From Myxococcales bacterium (GTDB taxonomy: Bacteria > Myxococcota_A > Polyangia > Nannocystales > Nannocystaceae), in the NCBI GenBank assembly GCA_020633315.1, contig JACKDV010000004.1:448071-512070 (forward strand): DNA of 64,000 bases, read 5' to 3'. Positions within the stretch are counted from its first letter, which is position 1, and each line of letters opens with the position of its first letter. A program made the position numbers and the translations under genes. This document shows positions 645 through 60,900 of the stretch, one piece after another. The notes under the pieces were generated by a model, which was not told where the DNA came from, made no database searches, and saw nothing but the letters and a program-made list of their open reading frames with translations.

Positions 645-1883
645 ATGACCGTGCTCCATCGTCGCTCGTCTCGTGCCCGGCGCTCGGGCGCGGCCCTGGT
701 CCTGCTGCTGGTCGCCTGCGGTGGCGGTGGCGCGGACGCGGGCCCCACCACCACGGGCGACGACGCGGCCGCGAGCACCAGCTCGAGCGGCGGCGAGGCC
801 ACCACCGGCACCGGCACCGGCGAGGACGAGACCGGCGACTCCAGCGGGGCCGAGCCGCTGCCGCCGGCCAACCTGCTGCTGATGGAGAGCGTGATCTTCT
901 ACGACGGCTACGCCGAGACCGTGCGCGAGCCGGTGCCCGAGGGGATCATCCGCCACCGCAACTCGCTGGTCGCCACCCGCCTCGGCGACGAGGAGCTCGA
1001 CCTCATCCAGTCGAACCTCCAGATGCAGGTGCTGATCGGGGCGATGTGCGACAACTACGATCGCATCGGCTCGGTGCTGCTGGCCCTGGCTCCCAAGGGC
1101 GCCGAGACCTACGACCCCGCCGCCGTCCCGCGGCTGGAGCTGGCGCGCTTCATCACCCCCTTCATGAACAAGAACAAGGAGCCCGACACCGTCCCCTACG
1201 AGTGGGACATCGACGGCGTGGCCGCGATCCTCACCGACCCCGAGCTGCGGGCCCAGCACGACTTGTGGATCGAGCTCGAGGTGTTCGGAGTGCCCTACGC
1301 CGCCAACACCGAGGTGGTCGGCTGCGCGGGGCGCAACGACGTGTTCCGCGGCTGGCTCGCGCTCTACACCGACGGCAGCGACGAGCCCGCGGGCTGGCAG
1401 CGGCTCCAGCCGCTGGCGGTCGAGGAGGCCTTCAACAACTACCAAGAGGGCGCCAGCGACAGCGTGGGCCTCACCCGCAAGACGATCGAGATCACCCTCG
1501 ACGAGGATGCCGTCGACGCGCAGCTCGTGCTCATCACCTCCAACCACGGGGCCAACGCGGGCGGCGAGGAGTACATCCGTCGCGACCACTTCGTGTACCT
1601 CGATGGCGAGCTCGCGCTGCAGTACAAGCCGGGGCGCGAGAGCTGCGAGCCCTTCCGCATGTACAACACCCAGGGCAACGGCATCTACGGCACCTCGCCC
1701 ATGACCGACGAAGAGTGGCAGTCGTTCAGCAACTGGTGCCCCGGCGACGTGATCGACACGCGGGTGATCCCCTGGGGGCCCGTGGACGCGGGCACCCACG
1801 AATTCGTGATCGACGTGCCCGACGCCCAGTTCGTGGGCGGGCAGGGCGACTTCCCGTTCTCGCTGTACCTGCAGGCGCGGTAG
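645..1883 (+). CDS. Secreted lipoprotein of unknown function; globular C-terminal domain, possibly a glycosidase-like (PNGase-F-like) fold
   Basis: 412-aa ORF with an N-terminal signal peptide and lipobox (LVLLLVAC-GGG), then a G/S/T/D/E-rich linker and a W/Y/F-rich globular part. No family motif could be assigned with certainty. Confidence 0.75.
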   Translation: MTVLHRRSSRARRSGAALVLLLVACGGGGADAGPTTTGDDAAASTSSSGGEATTGTGTGEDETGDSSGAEPLPPANLLLMESVIFYDGYAETVREPVPEGIIRHRNSLVATRLGDEELDLIQSNLQMQVLIGAMCDNYDRIGSVLLALAPKGAETYDPAAVPRLELARFITPFMNKNKEPDTVPYEWDIDGVAAILTDPELRAQHDLWIELEVFGVPYAANTEVVGCAGRNDVFRGWLALYTDGSDEPAGWQRLQPLAVEEAFNNYQEGASDSVGLTRKTIEITLDEDAVDAQLVLITSNHGANAGGEEYIRRDHFVYLDGELALQYKPGRESCEPFRMYNTQGNGIYGTSPMTDEEWQSFSNWCPGDVIDTRVIPWGPVDAGTHEFVIDVPDAQFVGGQGDFPFSLYLQAR

Positions 1884-2561: not shown

Positions 2562-2942
2562 ATGATCTGCTCTTGCTCCCTTGCCTACCACCACGCGGAT
2601 GGCGATTGCCGTCGCCGGGGTGGCGCGCGTCGGAGGGGTGCTCGCGTCGGGGCGAGCCTGCTCGGCCTGGTGGCGGGGCTGATGCTCCTGGGCTGCACCG
2701 ACGACGACTCGAGCGCGACCTCCAGCGGCAGCTCGGGCACCACGAGCCCGATGACCACGATGACCACGATGACCACGATGACCACCGCGACGCCCGAGAC
2801 CGACTCGAGCTCGAGCGGCTCGGGGGGAGCGAGCGGCTCGGGCTCCTCGACCGCGGCGGACACCGAAGGCAGCAGCGGCACGAGCTCCGCGAGCACCACC
2901 GCGGCGGACACCGAGGAGACCACCTCCGGCACCTCCGGGTAG
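2562..2942 (+). CDS. Possible small S/T/G-rich lipoprotein (low-complexity)
   Basis: Signal-like LLGLVAGLMLLGCTDDD followed by a Ser/Thr/Gly tail. It contains an ATGACCACG x4 microsatellite (MTTMTTMTT). Low-complexity composition makes the call uncertain. Confidence 0.3.
   Translation: MICSCSLAYHHADGDCRRRGGARRRGARVGASLLGLVAGLMLLGCTDDDSSATSSGSSGTTSPMTTMTTMTTMTTATPETDSSSSGSGGASGSGSSTAADTEGSSGTSSASTTAADTEETTSGTSG
2751..2786 (+). repeat. ATGACCACG x4 microsatellite (encodes MTTMTTMTTMTT)
   Basis: Perfect 9-bp tandem copies read directly in the sequence. Confidence 0.8.
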
Positions 2943-2943
2943 G

Positions 2944-3023
2944 CCGAGCTCCTCGTGCTCGCGGGCGCGGGGCAAGCGTGGCGTCGGGAGGGGCACCACC
3001 GTCCGAGCTCCTCGTGCTCGCGG
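2944..3023. repeat. Two copies of a 21-bp element CCGAGCTCCTCGTGCTCGCGG, each containing the hairpin CGAGC-N7-GCTCG, 38 nt apart
   Basis: Direct repeat between the convergent genes 2562..2942 and 3110..3499. Confidence 0.7.
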
Positions 3024-3109
3024 CGCGGGTCCTGGTCTGAGGCACGGCGCGAGGTCGAGGAGAGCCATCGCGTGCGAGCACGCGGAGGGCCCGGCCGGGG
3101 CTGGGCTGT

Positions 3110-3499
3110 CTATCCGCCTTCGCTCATGCGGGCGCGCACGGCCTCGGCGATCGCCGCCGAGAGGTCGTCGATGCTGCGGCGGCTGGGCTCCACGTCTGCC
3201 ACCAACCCGCCGACCACCGCGTGATCGTCCTCGGTGTCGACCCGCTCGGTCACCATCGCTCGACCGTCCGTGGTCCCGAGGATCACGGCGAGGCGTACCG
3301 ACGAGCCATTGGTGAAGCCACGCACTCGCCAGGCGATCATCGAGGCCTCGACCGGCTCGGCGCGGAACACCTCGAGCACCGCGCCGCCCTCCAGCGCCAC
3401 GCGTACCGTGGGGATCGTGGGCTCGTCGGGATCGAGCCCCGCCGCCAGGGCCTCGAGGGCCGGCCATAGCCGAGCGGCCGCGTCCTCCGCCTTCGTCAC
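3110..3499 (-). CDS. Hypothetical protein (129 aa)
   Basis: Balanced composition with no low-complexity stretch. It sits immediately downstream of the LuxR-HTH fragment on the same strand. No recognisable domain. Confidence 0.55.
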   Translation of the reverse strand: MTKAEDAAARLWPALEALAAGLDPDEPTIPTVRVALEGGAVLEVFRAEPVEASMIAWRVRGFTNGSSVRLAVILGTTDGRAMVTERVDTEDDHAVVGGLVADVEPSRRSIDDLSAAIAEAVRARMSEGG

Positions 3500-3541
3500 G
3501 ATCGGAGGATTTCATTGGCCGAGCACGGGTGCAACGACTGG

Positions 3542-3718
3542 TCATTCGCGACGCTGGTCATTCGTCGAGGGGTGGAGCACGGCCAGGCGTGCCTCGAGCA
3601 GATGGAAGGCGCTGATCCGCGCGGCGACCTGGGCCACCCGGTTGCGGGTCGTGTGGGGAGAGCTGCCGAGAGCCTCTCCGATCTGCGCGTTGGTGTGACC
3701 CAGGGCCACGTGCTCCAC
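3542..3718 (-). CDS. LuxR/GerE-type HTH fragment; either a 58-aa GTG-initiated ORF or a remnant of a larger regulator
   Basis: A frame not listed in the track translates to ...PPRQRRVVEHVALGHTNAQIGEALGSSPHTTRNRVAQVAARISAFHLLEARLAV..., a complete LuxR-type HTH signature. Upstream the frame is closed by TAG with no ATG/GTG before the helix-1 region, so only a GTG at 3716-3718 can start it. Confidence 0.3.
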   Translation of the reverse strand: MEHVALGHTNAQIGEALGSSPHTTRNRVAQVAARISAFHLLEARLAVLHPSTNDQRRE

Positions 3719-3912
3719 GACCCGTCGTTGCCGAGGGGGAGGCGCCCACGGGCCGGCGGGCGAGCGGGAGCGCGGTGGCCTTGTGCCACCGCGACCCTTC
3801 GCCTACGATCGAGAGCACACCCGTGGCAGGGCGATCCGAGAGGGTCGCCCTTTTTCGTGCGCGCGTTCCCGGACTCGGGGGCGCGCGCGTTTCATTGGAG
3901 CGACATCACATC

Positions 3913-4425
3913 ATGGCTCGAGCCCACCTGCTGATCGGCCCCGTGGGGGCCGGCAAGTCCACCCTCGCCCTTCGCCTGTGCCGGGAGCACCAGGCGCTAC
4001 GACTGACCCTCGACGACTGGATGACTCGGCTCTTTCGTCCCGACCGCCCCGACGCCGGGGTGGTGGAGTGGTACGTGGAGCGAGCCGAGCGCTGCCTCGA
4101 GCAGATCTGGCGGGTCGCCCAGGATGCGCTCGCGGCCGGGACCGACGTGGTCCTGGAGATCGGCTTGATCCAGCGGCGCGATCGCGAGGCCTTCTACCGT
4201 CGGGTGGACGAGGCCGGCGTGGCGCTCGTGGTCCACCTCGTCGATGCGCCCCGCGAGCTGCGGCGGGAGCGGGTGGCCCAGCGCAACCTCGAGCGCGGCC
4301 AGACCTTCTCCATGGAGGTGCCGCCTCCGTTCTTCGAGCTGGCCAGCGACCTGTGGGAGCCGCCCGACGAGCTGGAGCAACGAGAGCGGGCCATCCACGT
4401 CTGGTCCGCCCCGGGGGTGCCCTGA
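3913..4425 (+). CDS. P-loop NTPase / small-molecule kinase-like protein (AAA_33 / zeta-toxin-like fold)
   Basis: Walker A motif LIGPVGAGKSTLALRL sits directly after an internal ATG at 3913. The 46 upstream codons in the track ORF are junk. 170 aa. Confidence 0.75.
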   Translation: MARAHLLIGPVGAGKSTLALRLCREHQALRLTLDDWMTRLFRPDRPDAGVVEWYVERAERCLEQIWRVAQDALAAGTDVVLEIGLIQRRDREAFYRRVDEAGVALVVHLVDAPRELRRERVAQRNLERGQTFSMEVPPPFFELASDLWEPPDELEQRERAIHVWSAPGVP

Positions 4426-4531
4426 GGGCGCACCGCGGGGCGCGAGCGCGGCTCGGCGGGTGGCCGCTCGGGATCGAGCCCGCAGCGGCGTCGCGCCGGG
4501 CTATCATCGTCGCATCGATCGCCTCGAGAAG

Positions 4532-6061
4532 ATGCGCCGCCGCCTGCCGGTGGTGGACCGGCTGCCCGCCCCCGGGTCGCGGCGGGCCCTGCCGCTTGCG
4601 AAGGGCGAGGCCCCCACCCCCACCTTCGCGGTGTGGGAGCTGACGCTGGCCTGCGACCATCGCTGCCGTCACTGCGGCCCGCGGGCGGCCAAGGCCCGGC
4701 CCGACGAGCTGAGCACCGACGAGTGCCTGCGCCTGGTCGACGAGCTGGCCGAGCTCGGCGTGGGCGAGGTGGTGCTGATCGGCGGCGAGGCCTACCTGCG
4801 CGACGACTTCCTGCTGGTGATCCGGGCCTGCCGCGAGCGCGGCATGTCGGTCACCATGACCACCGGCGGGTGGGGGCTGACCCCCGAGCGCTGCGCCGCC
4901 GCCAAGCAGGCCGGGCTGCGCGGGGTGTCGGTGTCGATCGACGGGCTGCGGGAGAGCCACGACCACGTGCGCCGCCCCGGGAGCTGGGACCGGGCCTTCG
5001 CCGCGCTGCGCCACGCCAAGGCGGCCGGGCTGCCCATCGCCTCCAACACGCAGATCAACCAGCGCTCGGCGGGCGAGCTGCTGCCGCTGCTCGAGCTGCT
5101 GGGCGCCGAGGGGATCCACGGCTGGCAGATCCAGCTCACCATGGCGCACGGCAACGCGGCCGATCACCCCGAGCTGCTGGTGCAGCCCCACATGCTGATC
5201 GAGCTGTACCAGAGCATCGACACGGTGATCGATCGCTGCGACGAGCTGGGGATCCGGCTGTGGCCGGCGAACAACATCGGCTACTTCGGCCCCATCGAGC
5301 AGCGCCTGCGCTTCCACCAGACGGGGGGGCGCCACTTCAGCGGCTGCAAGGCGGGGCTCCGCACCGTCGGCATCGAGAGCAACGGGACGATCAAGAGCTG
5401 CCCCAGCCTCGGCGGCCCGGTCAACGACGGGGGCTCGTGGCGCGAGCACGGGCTGCGAGCGCTGTGGGAGCGGGCGCCCGAGATCGGATACACGCGCCAC
5501 CGGACGCTCGACGATCTGTGGGGGTACTGCCGCGAGTGCTACTACGCGAGCACCTGCATGGCCGGCTGCACCGCCACCTCCGAGCCTCTGCTGGGTCGAC
5601 CGGGGAACAACCCCTACTGCCTGCACCGGGCGCTGGAGATGGATCGCATGGGGCTGCGCGAGCGCATCGAGGCGGTGCGGGGGGCCGAGGACGTGCCCTT
5701 CGGCGCCGGGCTGTTCCGGCTGATCCGCGAGCCCAAGGATCCGGCCGCGCGCGGCGAGCCGGGGGCGTGCCAGGTGGAGGAGCCGCGGGTGGATCGACGG
5801 CAGGAGCCCCATGGCCCGGGGCGGCCGGCCGCTGAGCGAAGGAGCCACCGAGGGGAGGAGGACGGCTACGCCGTGGTCGTCCCGCCCGAGCCCGAGCCGC
5901 TGCCCGTGTCCCCGCTGCCGCTCCCCGAGCCCTCCGAGCCCGAGCCGCCGTCGCTGGACTCCGAGCCCGAGCCCCCCGAGGACGAGCCCTCGGCCGCGGT
6001 GGTCGAGTCGTCGTCGGGCGGCGTGGTGTCGAGCGAGGTGTCGACCTCGGGCCCGGCGTAG
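4532..6061 (+). CDS. Radical SAM enzyme with SPASM domain (peptide/protein-modifying maturase class)
   Basis: CxxxCxxC cluster (LTLACDHRCRHCGP) and a C-terminal SPASM motif CRECYYASTCMAGC (C-x2-C-x5-C-x3-C). The internal ATG at 4532 follows 96 junk codons. The last ~110 aa are a P/E/S-rich tail running to the stop at 6061. Confidence 0.8.
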   Translation: MRRRLPVVDRLPAPGSRRALPLAKGEAPTPTFAVWELTLACDHRCRHCGPRAAKARPDELSTDECLRLVDELAELGVGEVVLIGGEAYLRDDFLLVIRACRERGMSVTMTTGGWGLTPERCAAAKQAGLRGVSVSIDGLRESHDHVRRPGSWDRAFAALRHAKAAGLPIASNTQINQRSAGELLPLLELLGAEGIHGWQIQLTMAHGNAADHPELLVQPHMLIELYQSIDTVIDRCDELGIRLWPANNIGYFGPIEQRLRFHQTGGRHFSGCKAGLRTVGIESNGTIKSCPSLGGPVNDGGSWREHGLRALWERAPEIGYTRHRTLDDLWGYCRECYYASTCMAGCTATSEPLLGRPGNNPYCLHRALEMDRMGLRERIEAVRGAEDVPFGAGLFRLIREPKDPAARGEPGACQVEEPRVDRRQEPHGPGRPAAERRSHRGEEDGYAVVVPPEPEPLPVSPLPLPEPSEPEPPSLDSEPEPPEDEPSAAVVESSSGGVVSSEVSTSGPA

Positions 6062-6267
6062 GCGGCCACTCCCATCTCGGTGGTCGTGCCCGTCCCCGCG
6101 CCCTCGTCTCCGCCGTCGTCGCCCGGGCACCCGGCGAGGGTGAGCCCCAGCACGGCCGTCGCCATCGCGGGACCGAGCGCCGAGCCGCGCGCGAGCGAGG
6201 CGTCGCAGAACGGACAGTGGCGATGATCGGTACGAACGAAGCGACGACACTCGGGACAGGGGATCAT
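5866..6267 (-). CDS. Small zinc-ribbon + single-TM protein; candidate anti-sigma factor for the adjacent ECF sigma
   Basis: From the internal ATG: MIPCPECRRFVRTDHRHCPFC (C-x2-C...C-x2-C), then a TM/lipobox-like segment MATAVLGLTLAGC and a G/S/T/D tail. It lies 73 nt downstream of the ECF sigma gene on the same strand. The tail overlaps the 3' end of the radical SAM gene. Confidence 0.45.
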   Translation of the reverse strand: MIPCPECRRFVRTDHRHCPFCDASLARGSALGPAMATAVLGLTLAGCPGDDGGDEGAGTGTTTEMGVAAYAGPEVDTSLDTTPPDDDSTTAAEGSSSGGSGSESSDGGSGSEGSGSGSGDTGSGSGSGGTTTA

Positions 6268-6340
6268 CGCTCCCAAGGTACCACGGAGGAGCACCACGGG
6301 GGCTCGCGCGATCGGACCGCCCGATGGGCACCCGCGCGCG

Positions 6341-7237
6341 CTACCGCGGAATGGCCTCCACCAGCGCCTCGAGCCGCGCCGCGAGGCCACGCCCGAGCGG
6401 CTCCTGCATCGAGCGCAGCAGCGCCCCCAGCGATGTGCCTGCGCTCGCGCTCGGTCGCGGAGCCGCAGCGGGCGGAGGCGCAGCCCCGCCCCGTCCACCC
6501 GGGATCGCGCCGCTGGATCCGGGCGGCGGAATCGCGGGCGGCCGGGCGGGCGCAGGCGGAGCGGCTCGGGGCGGCGGCGCGGTGGCGCGGGCCGACGCCG
6601 GAGCAGCGGCCATCCTCGACCTCGTCGACCGAGCTCGACCCTGCGAGATCTCGCGACGCAGCGGGTCGGGCTCGGCCCGCACGCGTGCGCGCCGGGCCCC
6701 TTCGCGGGGCGGCTCCTCGAGGGCCTCGCGCATCACCGCCAGCGCCCGGGACACCCGCATGCGCACCGTCCCCGGCCGCAGCCCGAACGCCTCCGCCAGC
6801 TCGTCGTAGCCGAGCTCGTGCTGGAATCGCAGCACCACCAGCGCGCGCTGGGACTCGTCGAGCACCCGCAGCCCTCGCTCCACCAGGGTGCGGTTGGTCA
6901 GCCACGACGACGGCAGCGGCTGCTCATCGGGCGCCTCCTCGGCGTCCACCTCGTCGTCGATCCCCCACGGCCGCGCCTTGCGTCGGCGGAGGTGATCGAT
7001 GCAGCGGTTGCGCGCGATGGCCAGCAGCCAGGTGCGGGGCGAGGCCTCGCCGCGGTAGCTGGCCAGCCCGGTGAACGCCCGGCCGAACGCATCCTGGGCG
7101 AGGTCCTCCGCGGTGGCCGGGTCGCGCACCATCGCGCGACACAGGCCGAGCACCTCGGCCCCGTGCTCGAGCACCAGCCAGCGCGCCGCTCCGCGCACGT
7201 CGCCCTGCTCCAGCCTCGAGACGAGCTCCGTCCCCAT
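6341..7237 (-). CDS. ECF-type RNA polymerase sigma-70 factor with a Pro/Ala-rich C-terminal extension
   Basis: Regions 2 and 4 are recognisable (AEDLAQDAFGRAF ... LRFQHELGYDELAEAFGLRPGTVRMRVSRAL). Start is the internal ATG at 7235-7237. Confidence 0.85.
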   Translation of the reverse strand: MGTELVSRLEQGDVRGAARWLVLEHGAEVLGLCRAMVRDPATAEDLAQDAFGRAFTGLASYRGEASPRTWLLAIARNRCIDHLRRRKARPWGIDDEVDAEEAPDEQPLPSSWLTNRTLVERGLRVLDESQRALVVLRFQHELGYDELAEAFGLRPGTVRMRVSRALAVMREALEEPPREGARRARVRAEPDPLRREISQGRARSTRSRMAAAPASARATAPPPRAAPPAPARPPAIPPPGSSGAIPGGRGGAAPPPAAAPRPSASAGTSLGALLRSMQEPLGRGLAARLEALVEAIPR

Positions 7238-7449
7238 CGTCACCAACGGTAGCCAGCCCGCGCGGGAAATTCGATCGCACGCGGGGCGCCCGGCCTCGGA
7301 GGTCGACGAGCGAGGCCGCCGTTCGTCACCAACGATTTCGATCTTTCCTCCAATCCATTGATATTGCTCGGCTATCGACGACCCTTTCAAGACCGCCGTG
7401 ACGCCCCCCGCCCCTGGCCGGTCGATCCACGCGAAAGGCCAGCGAGCCC

Positions 7450-8475
7450 ATGACCATCACCATCGACAACGACACCATCCGCTTCGGCCGTCGAGGCCTC
7501 ACCCTCAGCTTCCAGCGGACCCTGCGCATCCCCGACGACGGCAAGAGCTACCCGCTGCCCCCCGGCCTGGGTCGCTTCCCCGTGCGACGCGTGGACGACT
7601 ACGCCGAGCGCGTGCCGGCCGAGTGGGTCGAGCACGGCGGCGTGTTCCTGCCCATGTACCAGCGCGAGGCGATGTGGATCTCCTTCGGTCGCCAGGACCA
7701 CCGACCACGTGCGGTGAAGCTGGCGGTGGGCAAGGTGTGTGCGCTGACCGGCAAGCCGTGGTCCGAGTCGCTGCACGCCTCGCCGCAGGACTACCTGGTC
7801 ACGCCGCCGCAGCCGTGGCTCGACGGCATCTACGTGCGCGAGGGCGCGATCCGTCAGTTCATCGCGATGCCGCTGGGACAGGGCTACACGGTCGAGGGCC
7901 AGGTCACCGGGCAGGAGGTCCACGGCGGCCTGCAGATCGAGGTGCTCGAGCCCAAGGCGGGGCGCTTCCCCGAGCCGCCGCCGCGACGAGCCGAGGGCCG
8001 CACGCGCTCCCGCGCCACGATGGCCAGCGCCGGCGCAGCCCCTGCGCCAGCGGCCCCCTGCCGAGCCGCTCCCGGGGGCGCGGCCATGGGCCTGGCCGCG
8101 GGCGGACACATGAAGCAGAAGGTCTACCCCGATCCCCACGGCCTCGACACCTGGGATCCCCACAACACCCACCGCCTGTTCGTGCACATCTGCAACAGCA
8201 TGCAGTGGCGGGAGATCACCGGCGAGGAGGCGCCGCGCACCCCGGTGAGCGCCAAGAGCTACGCCTCGCACGGCCTGCCCTGGTTCGACCTCTACGACGA
8301 GGGCCTGGGCTCGCTGTCGCCCTCCTCCACCCTGGCTGGGGTGGCCTCGGTCAAGGACAAGGACCTCGAGCTGTTCGGCGTCGTGCAACAGGACGACGAC
8401 ACGGTGCAGCCCGGCCCCACCAAGGCGCTGTGGACCTCGGTGGCCAAGGGCGTGGTGCGCGACGGCAACTGGTAG
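7450..8475 (+). CDS. Conserved-looking hypothetical protein (341 aa)
   Basis: Balanced, W/Y/F/H-containing sequence (LPMYQREAMWISF, HICNSMQWREITGE) with one Ala-rich linker. Divergent from the ECF sigma gene. No family assigned. Confidence 0.65.
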   Translation: MTITIDNDTIRFGRRGLTLSFQRTLRIPDDGKSYPLPPGLGRFPVRRVDDYAERVPAEWVEHGGVFLPMYQREAMWISFGRQDHRPRAVKLAVGKVCALTGKPWSESLHASPQDYLVTPPQPWLDGIYVREGAIRQFIAMPLGQGYTVEGQVTGQEVHGGLQIEVLEPKAGRFPEPPPRRAEGRTRSRATMASAGAAPAPAAPCRAAPGGAAMGLAAGGHMKQKVYPDPHGLDTWDPHNTHRLFVHICNSMQWREITGEEAPRTPVSAKSYASHGLPWFDLYDEGLGSLSPSSTLAGVASVKDKDLELFGVVQQDDDTVQPGPTKALWTSVAKGVVRDGNW

Positions 8476-8538
8476 CCACCCTCGCGGCGCCGCGCGGACA
8501 TCCCCGTGGCGCCGCGATATGCTCGCCTCGCTTCGTCG

Positions 8539-11364
8539 ATGGGCATCGAGCGCGAGCAGATCACCGGGACCACCGACGCGACCGACCTGGGGGGATCGGG
8601 GCCCACCCGGGCCCTGCACCGCGAGGACCCGTCCCCGGCCGACGGCCGTGCGCCCGAGGGTGGGCGTCCCTCGGGGCGAGGCCCGGGTCGGACCCTCGGC
8701 CGCTACGTGGTGCTCGAGGATCTCGGCGCCGGCGGCATGAGCCTGGTCTCGGCGGCCTACGATCCCGAGCTCGATCGGCGGGTGGCCCTCAAGGTGATGC
8801 GCGCCGACGTGGGCGAGCGCCCCGAGCGAGCGCAGGCCCGGCTGCTGCGCGAGGCCCAGGCGATGGCCCGCCTCGCGCACCCCAACGTGGTGCGGGTCTA
8901 CGACGTGGGGGTGATCGGCTCGCAAGTGTACATGGCGATGGAGCTGGTCGAGGGCCGGACCCTGCGCGACTGGCTGCAGGCGCGCCCGCGGAGCTGGCGA
9001 GAGATCGTGGCGGTGCTCGTGCGGGCGGGCCGGGGCCTGGCCGCCGCCCACGACGCGGGCCTGGTGCACCTGGACGTCAAGCCGCGCAACATCATGGTGG
9101 GCGATGCGGGCGAGGTGAAGGTGGTCGACTTCGGCCTGGCCCGGCCGCCGCGTGCCTACGACTCCGAGTCCTTCGACGGCGTGCTGCTGCCGGAGGCCGA
9201 CGACACGATCACCCACGCCGGGCTGGTGATGGGCACGCCCGGCTACATGGCTCCCGAGCACCTCGAGGGCTCGCCCGACGCTCGCTCCGATCAGTTCTCG
9301 CTGTGCGTGACCGCCTGGGAGGCGCTGTACGGCCAGCGCCCCTACGGAGGGCGACGCCTCGACGTGTACCGGGGCGCGCTGCGGGCGGGGAAGCTCGCAG
9401 AGCCGCCGACCGAGGCCCGGGTGCCCGCACGCGTGCGACGGCTGCTCGAGCGGGGGCTGAGCATCGCGCCGGCGCAGCGCTGGCCCTCGCTGTCGCCCTT
9501 GCTCGACGCGCTGGCCGACGATCCCTGGCGACGACGCGTCCGCTACGGCGTGGTGGTGGGCATCGCGGGCGTGGCCGCGGTGGGGGCCTGGGCGCTGGGG
9601 CGGGGCCAGGCCGATCCCTGCGGCGGCGTGGACGAGCACCTCGCCCAGACCTGGGACGAGGGGCGGCGCGAGGCCGTGCGCAGCCACCTCGCGCGCGCGG
9701 GAGGCCAGCACGCCGAGGCCACCGCCTACGAGGTGGCCCAACTCCTCGACGACTACGCCGCGGACTGGAGCGCCGAGTGGACCGATGCCTGCCGGGCGGC
9801 CCAGGTGGAGCAGCGGCAATCGGCCGAGCTCCGGGACCTCCGCGACTACTGCCTGCGGCACCGGCTGCGCGCCCTCGACGGGACGGCCCGCGCCATCCTC
9901 GACTCGGAGCCCGAGACCGGCACCTCGTGGCGCGACGCGGTGCTGCGCCTGCCGTCGATCGATCGCTGCCGCGACCTGGGCTCGGTGCACGACGTGGGGC
10001 AGCCCCCCGCCGACCCCGAGCTACGCCGCGAGGTGGAGCGCATCGACTCCGAGCTCGCGCTGGCCCGCGCCCTCTACTATGCCGGGCACAACGAGGCCGG
10101 CGCGCAGAAGGCCCGCGAGGCGCTCGCCGAGGCCGAGCGACTCGATCATCCGCCGCTGCTGGCCGAGGCCAAGCTCGCCCTCGCCGAGGCGCTCAACCTG
10201 CTCGACCAGGCCGACGAGGCCGAGCGCCTCGCCTTCGAGGGCATGTGGGCCGCCGACGCGGCGCAGCTCCACGGCCTGCGCGTGGAGGCGATCATCGGCC
10301 TGGTCTACAACGTGGGGGTGCTCGGAGGTCGCTTCGAGGAGGCCGAGCACCTGGCCCAGGGCGGCATGGTGCTCGAGCGCGAGCTCGTCCACGACCCCAC
10401 GCTGCGCGCCCAGCTGCTCAACCACCTCGCGGCCGTGCACGCCACCGCGGGCGACCCGGCCCGGGCCCAGCAGGAGTACGAGCAGGCGCTTCGGATCCGC
10501 CGCGACCACCACCTGCCCGCCGACCTCGACGAAGGCTCCTCCCTCACCGGCATCGGGGCCACCGCCCTGCTGCTCGGCGACTACGAGCGCGCGCTCGCGG
10601 TGCAGCACGAGGCCTACGCGCTCTATCGCGACAACTACGGTGCCGACCACCCGGGCACCCTGGTGATCCACGAGAACGTGGCCACCACCCTGCTGGGCAT
10701 GGAGCGCTTCGAGGAGGGGCTGGCCGAGGTGGAGGAGCTGCTGCAGATCGCCCACCACGCCGGCCTCGACGACAAGACCATCGCCACCGCCGAGGCCACC
10801 CACGGGGCGGCGCTGCTCGAGCTGCGGCGCTTCGACGAGGCCCGCGAGGCGCTCGAGCACTCTCGCCGCAGCCTGGAGTCGCCGCTGCGGCGGCCGGTGC
10901 TGCTGGGGGTGGTGCGCGGGAACCTGGCGCTGGTGGCCCTCGAGCAGCGGCGCTTCGACGATGCGAAGGCGGAGGCCAACGCCGCGCTCGAGCGGCTGGG
11001 GCCGCTGCTGCCCGAGGACAACCTCTATGTGGTGTGGGCCAAGCTCGCGCTGGCCCGCGCGGAGCTGGGCCGCGGCGAGCCACGGGAGGCGCTGCGGCTC
11101 GCGAGCGAGGGCTGGGCCGTGCTGGAGACGCTCGAGGATCCGATCGGCCCGGACTTGCGCTCCGATGCGGCGCTGGTGTTGGCGCGAGCGCTGGAGGATC
11201 CCGAGGTGCTCGCGGAGCCCGGAGTGATCGAGTCGCTCGGGGGTGGGCGCTCGTCGACGCAGTGGGGCGCCCGCGCGCTGGCCGAGGCCCGCAGCGGCGG
11301 GCGCTCGGCGGAGCCGATGCGGCGACGCGCCGAGGCTTGGAAGCGCCGGCACGGCAGGCCGTGA
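8539..11364 (+). CDS. Ser/Thr protein kinase with C-terminal TPR-repeat domain
   Basis: Hanks kinase motifs are present (GAGGMSLV, VALKV, HLDVKPRNIM, DFGLAR, GTPGYMAPE), followed by a TM segment and ~550 aa of TPR-like repeats. The first ATG is 8539; the track ORF starts at an upstream GTG. Confidence 0.85.
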   Translation: MGIEREQITGTTDATDLGGSGPTRALHREDPSPADGRAPEGGRPSGRGPGRTLGRYVVLEDLGAGGMSLVSAAYDPELDRRVALKVMRADVGERPERAQARLLREAQAMARLAHPNVVRVYDVGVIGSQVYMAMELVEGRTLRDWLQARPRSWREIVAVLVRAGRGLAAAHDAGLVHLDVKPRNIMVGDAGEVKVVDFGLARPPRAYDSESFDGVLLPEADDTITHAGLVMGTPGYMAPEHLEGSPDARSDQFSLCVTAWEALYGQRPYGGRRLDVYRGALRAGKLAEPPTEARVPARVRRLLERGLSIAPAQRWPSLSPLLDALADDPWRRRVRYGVVVGIAGVAAVGAWALGRGQADPCGGVDEHLAQTWDEGRREAVRSHLARAGGQHAEATAYEVAQLLDDYAADWSAEWTDACRAAQVEQRQSAELRDLRDYCLRHRLRALDGTARAILDSEPETGTSWRDAVLRLPSIDRCRDLGSVHDVGQPPADPELRREVERIDSELALARALYYAGHNEAGAQKAREALAEAERLDHPPLLAEAKLALAEALNLLDQADEAERLAFEGMWAADAAQLHGLRVEAIIGLVYNVGVLGGRFEEAEHLAQGGMVLERELVHDPTLRAQLLNHLAAVHATAGDPARAQQEYEQALRIRRDHHLPADLDEGSSLTGIGATALLLGDYERALAVQHEAYALYRDNYGADHPGTLVIHENVATTLLGMERFEEGLAEVEELLQIAHHAGLDDKTIATAEATHGAALLELRRFDEAREALEHSRRSLESPLRRPVLLGVVRGNLALVALEQRRFDDAKAEANAALERLGPLLPEDNLYVVWAKLALARAELGRGEPREALRLASEGWAVLETLEDPIGPDLRSDAALVLARALEDPEVLAEPGVIESLGGGRSSTQWGARALAEARSGGRSAEPMRRRAEAWKRRHGRP

Positions 11365-24971: not shown

Positions 24972-27368
<2,397 letters not shown>

Positions 27369-59943: not shown

Positions 59944-60900
<957 letters not shown>

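Follow-up and report, generated by a model that had tools for sequence, protein, structure and literature searches.

What does the radical S-adenosylmethionine (rSAM)/SPASM enzyme encoded near the start of this 64-kb stretch of Nannocystaceae DNA (the window) act on? A sequence-only reading of the stretch had seen no precursor peptide beside the gene and had considered three kinds of substrate: a tiny unannotated open reading frame (ORF), the enzyme's own C-terminal tail, or a protein encoded in trans. Its expectation that the substrate would be encoded nearby was borne out, but the likely precursor is none of these three. It is the product of the convergent zinc-ribbon gene, which that reading had listed merely as a neighbour of a sigma factor gene. 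We propose that the two genes form a splicease-like system in which the enzyme would excise a tyramine equivalent from a lipoprotein precursor. The two genes and their parts are:

4532-6061, + strand: rSAM/SPASM enzyme, 509 aa (Pfam Radical_SAM, E=1.7e-25)
4532..5830, + strand: conserved core of the enzyme, residues 1-433 (Pfam, NCBIfam, homologues and the AlphaFold2 (AF2) model)
4652..4675, + strand: CX3CX2C motif C41-D-H-R-C45-R-H-C48, [4Fe-4S] binding (from the sequence; invariant in the enzyme alignment)
5345..5620, + strand: SPASM region, seven Cys for two auxiliary Fe-S clusters (invariant Cys; NCBIfam profiles)
5831..6061, + strand: Pro/Glu/Ser (P/E/S)-rich C-terminal extension of the enzyme, non-conserved, overlapping the 3' end of the convergent lipoprotein gene
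5866-6267, − strand: zinc-ribbon protein, 133 aa, convergent to the rSAM gene; a zinc-ribbon-headed, lipoprotein-type precursor and the predicted substrate, from its linkage to rSAM paralogues
6205..6258, − strand: zinc ribbon C4-P-E-C7-x10-C18-P-F-C21 (conserved Cys), the proposed recognition ('leader') element
6127..6186, − strand: signal-peptide-like uncharged stretch G28-G46 with the lipobox L44-A45-G46-C47 (family pattern)
6049..6066, − strand: predicted modification site A68-A69-Y70-A71-G72-P73 (Tyr codon 6058-6060), the sole conserved island of the tail

The ribbon gene recurs beside rSAM genes of this family. We assembled 80 rSAM loci with 8-kb flanks from species-representative genomes and added 3 by exact look-up, giving 83 loci; 81 non-redundant loci were used for the ribbon-protein count. 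All six-frame ORFs of the loci were searched with an iterative hidden Markov model (HMM) seeded with the first 60 residues of the ribbon protein. This gave 103 matches, found in 75 of the 81 loci, and 74 of the matches lay no more than 500 bp from the rSAM gene. Expressed as density, there were 74 matches in 79 kb of near flank versus 9 in the 767 kb beyond 2 kb, a difference of approximately 80-fold. The partner gene was located either directly upstream and co-directional, with a gap of 12-46 nt, or directly downstream, convergent or co-directional. This recurrence had first been seen in the same tblastn run as the kinase test described below. Within the window, the only member of the ribbon family is the one adjoining the enzyme, and its gene carries GGGAG 5 nt upstream of the ATG.

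Unbiased clustering of the neighbouring ORFs brought up no further partner with general conservation. The six-frame check for small ORFs that the sequence-only reading had suggested was run over 2900-7600 (at least 20 aa) and returned only spurious high-GC ORFs and no conserved small peptide. A word-indexed search of a 5.8-billion-protein set with the ribbon protein, a short and low-complexity query, gave 3 matches only. We are highly confident that the rSAM and ribbon genes are functionally linked.

The ribbon proteins share a simple architecture. The pattern C-x2-C-x10-C-x2-C was present in 102 of 102 family members, with CPFC in 99 of them, and is followed by a short positively charged linker and then by an uncharged stretch. 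In 94 of 102 members this stretch is at least 8 residues long (median 17) and has a Cys after it; the commonest tetrads from −3 to +1 are LAGC, LAAC and LVGC, usually succeeded by G-D-D or G-G-D. In the window protein, L-A-G-C47 agrees with the lipobox pattern [LVI][ASTVI][GAS]-C. Because a median of 17 residues is too short for a typical membrane helix, and because the lipobox Cys comes after it, the uncharged stretch is predicted to be a lipoprotein signal peptide, not a membrane anchor. The sequence-only reading had described a single transmembrane segment here; the hydrophobic stretch is present, but a lipoprotein signal peptide fits it better. Profile searches with eight family members and the window protein assigned them to no Pfam or NCBIfam family, and the ribbon itself, a putative metal site, gave weak matches only (Pfam UPF0547, 20.2 bits versus a cut-off of 29, and NCBIfam ribbon models).

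Beyond the signal peptide, the tail of these proteins is acidic and of low complexity (T 22%, S 17%, G 15%, D 12%), and Tyr makes up 1.8% of its residues. These Tyr residues are almost always set in the consensus [GDSE]-[GA]-[ASPV]-[TDLA]-Y-[GA]-[GAP]-[PA]-[DP]. Among 213 tail Tyr with full context, Gly or Ala came next in 163 (Gly 108, Ala 55), Gly was the commonest +2 residue (103) and Pro stood at +3 in 106. At least one Tyr was found in 100 of 102 members, often two to four, and the motif occurs in one to four copies; no conserved Cys, Lys, Glu or other potential partner residue near the Tyr was found in the family. In the clade of the window, no variation is seen at the four ribbon Cys, P19-F20, L40-G41-L42, C47 and A69-Y70-x-G72-P73. 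The Tyr motif, within a conserved core of ~14 residues, (S/G)VAAY(G/A)GP(D/E)VDT, is the only conserved island outside the N-terminus in this clade.

Some relatives depart from this plan. Variant C-termini occur in the ribbon proteins L076 9347-10129, L045 4084-6321, L058 1832-2869, L052 3935-4954 and L066 9347-10231: in some, the Tyr motif is succeeded by a Cys-rich C-terminal domain that looks folded (FIYG[AT]PD...ECD...DCP..EKC), and others end in LPYGAPMP after an MXAN_6577-like Cys-rich segment. Since Cys-rich domains neighbour the motif in some members, the Tyr site can adjoin a structured extracellular domain. An ordinary lipoprotein of the window (2562-2942, +) makes a useful negative control; it has an LLGC lipobox and a Ser/Thr/Gly-rich tail with a (TTM)n repeat, without ribbon or Tyr motif, and its weak match to the ribbon HMM (E=9e-6) is due to the signal peptide and the composition of the tail.

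Several enzyme-ribbon pairs are present in most genomes (at least 2-5 among the 80 retained loci). When the enzymes are arranged on a neighbour-joining tree, motif and gene order are particular to the clade:

AAY[GA]GP, the clade of the window: partner gene downstream and convergent
PLYGPV: partner gene upstream and co-directional, with an 18-46-nt gap
LPYGAP: own motif on the enzyme tree
FIYG[AT]P: own motif on the enzyme tree
S[YF]YAGP: own motif on the enzyme tree
ADYGGP: own motif on the enzyme tree
[VS]TY[AG]GP: own motif on the enzyme tree

Enzymes whose neighbouring ribbon proteins share the residue before Tyr were on average 75.5% identical, compared with 63.0% otherwise, and 0 of 2000 label permutations reached this difference. 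Such co-diversification is the pattern of enzyme-substrate pairs and is unexpected for chance neighbours.

Only one more neighbour recurs, an HTTM-domain membrane protein that is limited to one clade and absent from the window. It is a multi-pass protein of ~800 aa with a vitamin-K-carboxylase-like domain (PF05090, 32.9 bits), and its gene follows the ribbon-lipoprotein gene at L036 10227-12650 (+) and in 15 other loci of the [VS]TY[AG]GP clade (e.g. L024, L032, L037, L039, L051, L060, L062 and L070). This protein may be a clade-specific third component.

The enzyme has both features that define the rSAM/SPASM class. The CX3CX2C motif lies in a core domain that scores 90.6 bits against Pfam PF04055 (cut-off 29.5), for which AF2 gives a confident TIM-barrel. 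The SPASM region contains C272, C290, C333, C336, C342, C346 and C363, all invariant in an alignment with 12 homologues, with C333/C336/C342/C346 forming the C-x2-C-x5-C-x3-C motif. The Pfam SPASM model is sub-threshold here (16.9 bits versus 21.5), while NCBIfam profiles of SPASM families still align through the region. Homologues 62-83% identical are found in the Nannocystaceae (Paraliomyxa, Nannocystis, Plesiocystis, Enhygromyxa and many metagenome-assembled genomes (MAGs)); they are 440-460 aa long and end just past a conserved GPGRP.

The profile scores single out two families. TIGR03913 (397 bits) and TIGR04103 (389 bits) lead, the third family reaches 131 bits, and the heme (AhbD, NirJ), PqqE, MftC, SCIFF and sactipeptide profiles score below that. 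Both alignments span nearly the whole profiles, covering positions 5-382 of 412 in TIGR04103 and 18-391 of 477 in TIGR03913, where the C-terminal part of the family is missing. Four other representatives of the clade gave the same pattern, and TIGR04103 scores in other clade members were 411-421 bits. In a HMMER scan of 1.84 billion cluster representatives, the nearest relatives outside the enzyme's own family were 43-49% identical; one of them, P0246 (47%), is a true TIGR03913 member with 771 bits, and the others score between the TIGR03913 and TIGR04103 models. Judged by these scores, the enzyme belongs outside both curated families and inside their wider clade. TIGR04103 is named 'nif11-class peptide radical SAM maturase 3', and we take it to be the same family as IPR026482, the PlpX splicease family. 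PlpX (IPR026482) is the prototype tyramine splicease and acts on Nif11/NHLP precursors (PMC11002830). No splicease structure was found in the PDB, where sequence and fold searches returned generic rSAM/SPASM maturases only, the best matches being SkfB, PqqE, SuiB and the anaerobic sulfatase-maturating enzyme (anSME).

A side match concerns TIGR03913. Ribbon residues 3-29 of L040 9163-9870 (+) align very weakly (E=0.046) with positions 430-456 of the 477 in that profile. GDL-type maturases may carry a similar ribbon fused to the enzyme and not to the substrate, although the match could be due to chance.

The same scores bear on whether the enzyme might be a cofactor-biosynthesis enzyme (AhbD/NirJ-like, for heme) or an anSME with substrates in trans. 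One source names the Plesiocystis homologue 'heme biosynthesis protein', the AhbD and NirJ profiles do reach 93-128 bits, and anSME is among the structural matches. However, the AhbD and NirJ scores are a third of those of TIGR03913 and TIGR04103 and far under their own cut-offs of 500-650, and anSME is absent from the best 25 NCBIfam matches. Moreover, several paralogues per genome, each beside a different Tyr-motif protein, are unlike a housekeeping enzyme. We consider this explanation highly improbable. The profile scores agree with the sequence-only reading in treating the SPASM enzyme as a peptide or protein maturase, neither anSME nor heme enzyme; the placement among anSMEs that it had named as a possible refutation was not found. 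Such enzymes should not be annotated as heme-biosynthesis or AlbA-like proteins.

Spliceases, which are rSAM/SPASM enzymes, cut a tyramine equivalent (C8H9NO) out of X-Y-G sites (PMC11414181, PMC11626197, PMC10533398, PMC9811515). Some splicease systems are binary and lack a Y protein, and spliceases accept protein-sized substrates and short core tags placed in whole proteins (PMC11414181, PMC11626197, PMC10533398). Because the family placement, the X-Y-[G/A] island and the co-diversification agree, we propose splicing of Tyr70 in the window protein. On this evidence it is reasonably probable that the rSAM and ribbon genes constitute a splicease system in which a lipoprotein precursor loses tyramine at its Tyr motif ahead of export. 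The precursor would consist of a cytoplasmic N-terminal zinc ribbon, a lipoprotein-type signal peptide and a disordered, acidic, Ser/Thr/Gly-rich tail with one AAYAGP site. The enzyme would recognise it in the cytoplasm, probably by its zinc ribbon, by the ~14-residue core that surrounds the Tyr, or by both, cleave SAM reductively and excise C8H9NO from Tyr70 in the manner of PlpX-type spliceases. The modified, unfolded chain would then be exported by Sec and lipidated at Cys47, and the cut by signal peptidase II would remove the ribbon and signal peptide together, much as the leader of a RiPP (a peptide made by the ribosome and modified after translation) is removed. The predicted product is a membrane-tethered, disordered protein bearing an electrophilic ketoamide, whose biological role is possibly protease inhibition at the cell surface.

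Several observations weigh against this proposal. The motif of the window is X-Y-A and not the canonical X-Y-G, and in the available text of the cited splicease papers only X-Y-G sites are documented as spliced. The enzyme reaches neither the curated TIGR04103 cut-off of 725 nor that of TIGR03913, 592 (591.75). It is unusual for a signal peptide to be preceded by a folded zinc ribbon, and the lipoprotein processing is predicted from sequence alone. A recognisable partner is absent in 6 of 81 loci. Co-diversification stems partly from duplication of the pairs as units, which speaks for linkage rather than catalysis. Finally, the ribbon gene lies 73 nt downstream of an extracytoplasmic function (ECF) sigma factor gene, an order typical of sigma/anti-sigma pairs.

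Some of these points could also suit a different radical chemistry at the Tyr of the same enzyme-substrate pair, such as a C-C or C-O crosslink, beta-hydroxylation or epimerisation. In addition to the enzyme lying under both curated cut-offs, about a quarter of the motifs, including that of the window, are Y-A rather than Y-G. SPASM enzymes also perform many chemistries on aromatic motifs, and SkfB, PqqE and SuiB are the closest solved folds. On the other hand, the two splicease-like family scores are three times those of any other SPASM family. A triceptide-type crosslink to the beta-carbon at +2 is impossible where that residue is Gly, the commonest case (103/213), and the conserved Cys, Lys, Glu or other partner residue that a crosslink might use is missing near the Tyr. 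We regard other chemistry as unlikely, though it is the most serious of the rival explanations, and continue with tyramine excision as the preferred reading.

The remaining genes around the enzyme that the sequence-only proposal named are:

3542-3718, − strand: helix-turn-helix (HTH) remnant, GerE / sigma-70 region 4-like, sub-threshold
3913-4425, + strand: AAA_33 P-loop kinase, 170 aa, Walker A GPVGAGKST (Pfam AAA_33, E=2e-25)
6341-7237, − strand: ECF sigma factor (Pfam Sigma70_r2 and r4_2)

That proposal joined the AAA_33 kinase with the rSAM enzyme in a new RiPP class under ECF/LuxR-type control. All of the genes it named are real, and the two enzyme genes are indeed adjacent and co-directional, with the 106-nt gap (4426-4531) correctly given. 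Conservation of the adjacency had been set beforehand as the deciding observation. In tblastn searches of the 83 loci, the kinase had 0 matches. Orthologues with 60-78% identity are spread widely over Sorangium, Archangium, Myxococcus, Minicystis and Nannocystis, and the kinase also occurs in a betaproteobacterium. No rSAM gene lay near the orthologues in the three contexts examined, which had unrelated neighbours; one of the three was the closest related MAG, which carries an 81%-identical rSAM gene on another contig. The kinase-rSAM cassette is refuted because the kinase adjacency is not conserved.

Regulation by the flanking genes fared no better. Of the 83 loci, ~10 had a detected ECF sigma factor, none of them in the clade of the window, and the LuxR remnant had no match in any of the 83. 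The kinase, the ECF sigma factor and the LuxR remnant are chance neighbours of the rSAM gene. With sigma and remnant not conserved as neighbours, and with the enzyme tail non-conserved and predicted to be disordered (see below), a kinase-rSAM class whose substrate is a tiny ORF, the tail or a protein in trans is extremely improbable. Further candidates for conserved neighbours, namely a 129-aa ORF, a 126-aa lipoprotein, a PNGase F-like gene and a 341-aa ORF, were rejected, none being conserved in the 83 loci.

Given the sigma gene, the zinc-ribbon protein might instead be an anti-sigma factor in the membrane that acts on the product of 6341-7237, in which case the target of the rSAM enzyme would be encoded elsewhere. 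The ribbon gene is on the same strand, 73 nt past the sigma gene, and in its product a hydrophobic segment comes after an N-terminal Cys4 element. But its cytoplasmic part would be only ~27 residues long and shows neither an anti-sigma domain nor a Pfam zf-HC2 match, and the conserved lipobox and Tyr motif would be left unexplained. The distribution of the sigma gene (~10 of 83 loci, none in the window clade) contrasts with that of the ribbon family, which adjoins the rSAM gene in 75 of 81. An anti-sigma role is very unlikely.

The enzyme's own tail had been another candidate substrate. It had been put at ~110 aa, but is ~75 aa, counted past the conserved core that ends near residue 431-434. 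It has no counterpart in 12 of 12 aligned homologues, and residues 434-509 have AF2 confidence (pLDDT) below 50 and are predicted to be disordered. The rSAM and zinc-ribbon genes overlap convergently by 196 nt (5866-6061), and the tail is the antisense shadow of the ribbon protein's Gly/Ser/Asp/Thr-rich low-complexity tail. Even the TAG at 6059-6061 that ends the tail is complementary to the partner's gcC-TAc around the sole Tyr codon of the tail (TAC, 6058-6060). Being non-conserved, predicted disordered and antisense to the partner tail, it is not a candidate substrate and was ruled out. Similar read-through extensions occur in loci L004, L010, L028 and L052.

How does the proposed splicease system compare with those already described? 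Known spliceotide systems include type I, PlpX/PcpX with a Y protein, and the binary type II (RhaX/RhaA, RcsX, RasX). The window resembles them in having an rSAM/SPASM enzyme in the TIGR04103 neighbourhood and an adjacent precursor with an X-Y-[G/A] site. It is like type II (PMC11414181) in particular in having no Y protein, neighbour clustering having given no conserved third small gene. It differs from PlpX in lying under the TIGR04103 cut-off of 725. Unlike spliceotide precursors of the NHLP/Nif11 or helical-leader kinds, the window precursor is a zinc-ribbon-headed lipoprotein with a long low-complexity tail. The Y-A variant, the lack of a dedicated protease or transporter and the many paralogous pairs per genome are further differences from known systems.

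Among the other families, TIGR03913, the GDL-motif peptide maturase, is the best-scoring curated profile for the enzyme. Unlike TIGR03913 systems, however, the window has no DUF1842/DUF1843 Pfam match among its neighbouring ORFs, and its partner family is unrelated; the TIGR03913-type partner in PMC12114271 differs from the window's ribbon protein. A literature search on DUF1842/DUF1843 and TIGR03913/GDL-motif systems found nothing on their chemistry. The proposed system is like anSME, a structural match, in that an rSAM/SPASM enzyme would act in the cytoplasm, before translocation, on a short motif of an export-bound protein. It is unlike anSME in its profile matches, in its motif (Cys/Ser-x-Pro/Ala-x-Arg in anSME) and in the adjacency of its predicted substrate, anSME substrates being usually encoded in trans. 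Triceptide/XYE-type cyclophane maturases likewise are rSAM/SPASM enzymes acting on short, often repeated aromatic motifs in an adjacent precursor, but their crosslink needs a beta-carbon at +2, here mostly Gly, and their profiles are not among the best matches. Pairs of an ECF sigma factor and a zinc-binding anti-sigma factor share with the window the gene order and an N-terminal Cys-rich element plus hydrophobic segment; the window protein has no anti-sigma domain, and related loci do not keep this arrangement.

By the evidence gathered here, a splicease with a Tyr-motif precursor is a known kind of system, and the zinc-ribbon lipoprotein precursor, the Y-A variant and the Nannocystaceae multi-paralogue expansion differ from the described types. 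No curated model covers any of these three features. The large survey by Scott et al. (Chem 2022, 8:2659), which screened for YG-rich ORFs beside rSAM-SPASM genes, is reported to have predicted 939 systems in 189 genera (PMC10849128, PMC10533398). That survey may already list Nannocystaceae loci, in which case the system described here would be just another member of a type on its list.

[quoted passage not shown] An ordinary lipoprotein signal peptide would double as a removable leader and a zinc ribbon as the recognition handle. The paralogous pairs, with their varied residue before Tyr, would form a natural library of splicease/splice-tag pairs for protein engineering. The pairs would also offer a testable route to native spliceotide function; according to a 2022 review, the final natural products from native hosts were still elusive (PMC9811515).

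A bolder version of the proposal, which we put forward tentatively and hold to be possible though doubtful, is that the Nannocystaceae splicease family acts on lipoproteins and not on secreted peptides, so that the paralogous pairs yield a set of electrophilic 'warheads', tethered to the surface and differing in P1 specificity. The residue that gives rise to the ketoamide would vary from pair to pair (Ala, Leu, Pro, Ile, Phe/Tyr, Asp or Thr), and Sec, Lgt and signal peptidase II would remove the zinc ribbon and signal peptide as leader. On the surface of these predatory bacteria, such warheads could inhibit proteases or capture them.

Some minor observations concern the remaining sequence, in a region of ~73% G+C. 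The 'LuxR-HTH fragment' of the sequence-only reading at 3542-3718 (−) does match HTH models, but only below threshold and in the manner of a remnant (GerE 20.9 bits versus a cut-off of 23.5; Sigma70_r4_2 22.8 versus 25.7). There is no in-frame start codon upstream of 3718 that would complete the domain, and we therefore read the HTH stretch at 3542-3790 (−), with the GerE / sigma-70 region 4-like sequence PPRQRRVVEHVALGHTNAQIGEALGSSPHTTRNRVAQVAARI, as a remnant, probably of a decayed regulator gene. A promoter scan of this high-GC region found no sigma-70-like promoter sites. A strong terminator-like hairpin at 3828-3851 (+), with 10 pairs, 7 of them G-C, followed by TTTTT, lies ~60 nt 5' of the kinase start, and no evident + strand gene terminates there. 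The ECF sigma factor has a C-terminal extension of ~120 aa (6341-6700, −) that is Pro/Ala/Arg-rich and has no Pfam match. Other genes of the window lie at 645-1883 (+), 7450-8475 (+), 8506-11364 (+), 25020-27278 (+) and 60025-60897 (−). The other window genes include those for the PNGase F-like protein, with N-glycanase_N and N-glycanase_C domains, the 341-aa ORF, which has no relatives in the fetched rSAM loci, and a 952-aa Ser/Thr kinase-like protein with tetratricopeptide (TPR)-like repeats and two paralogues elsewhere in the window.

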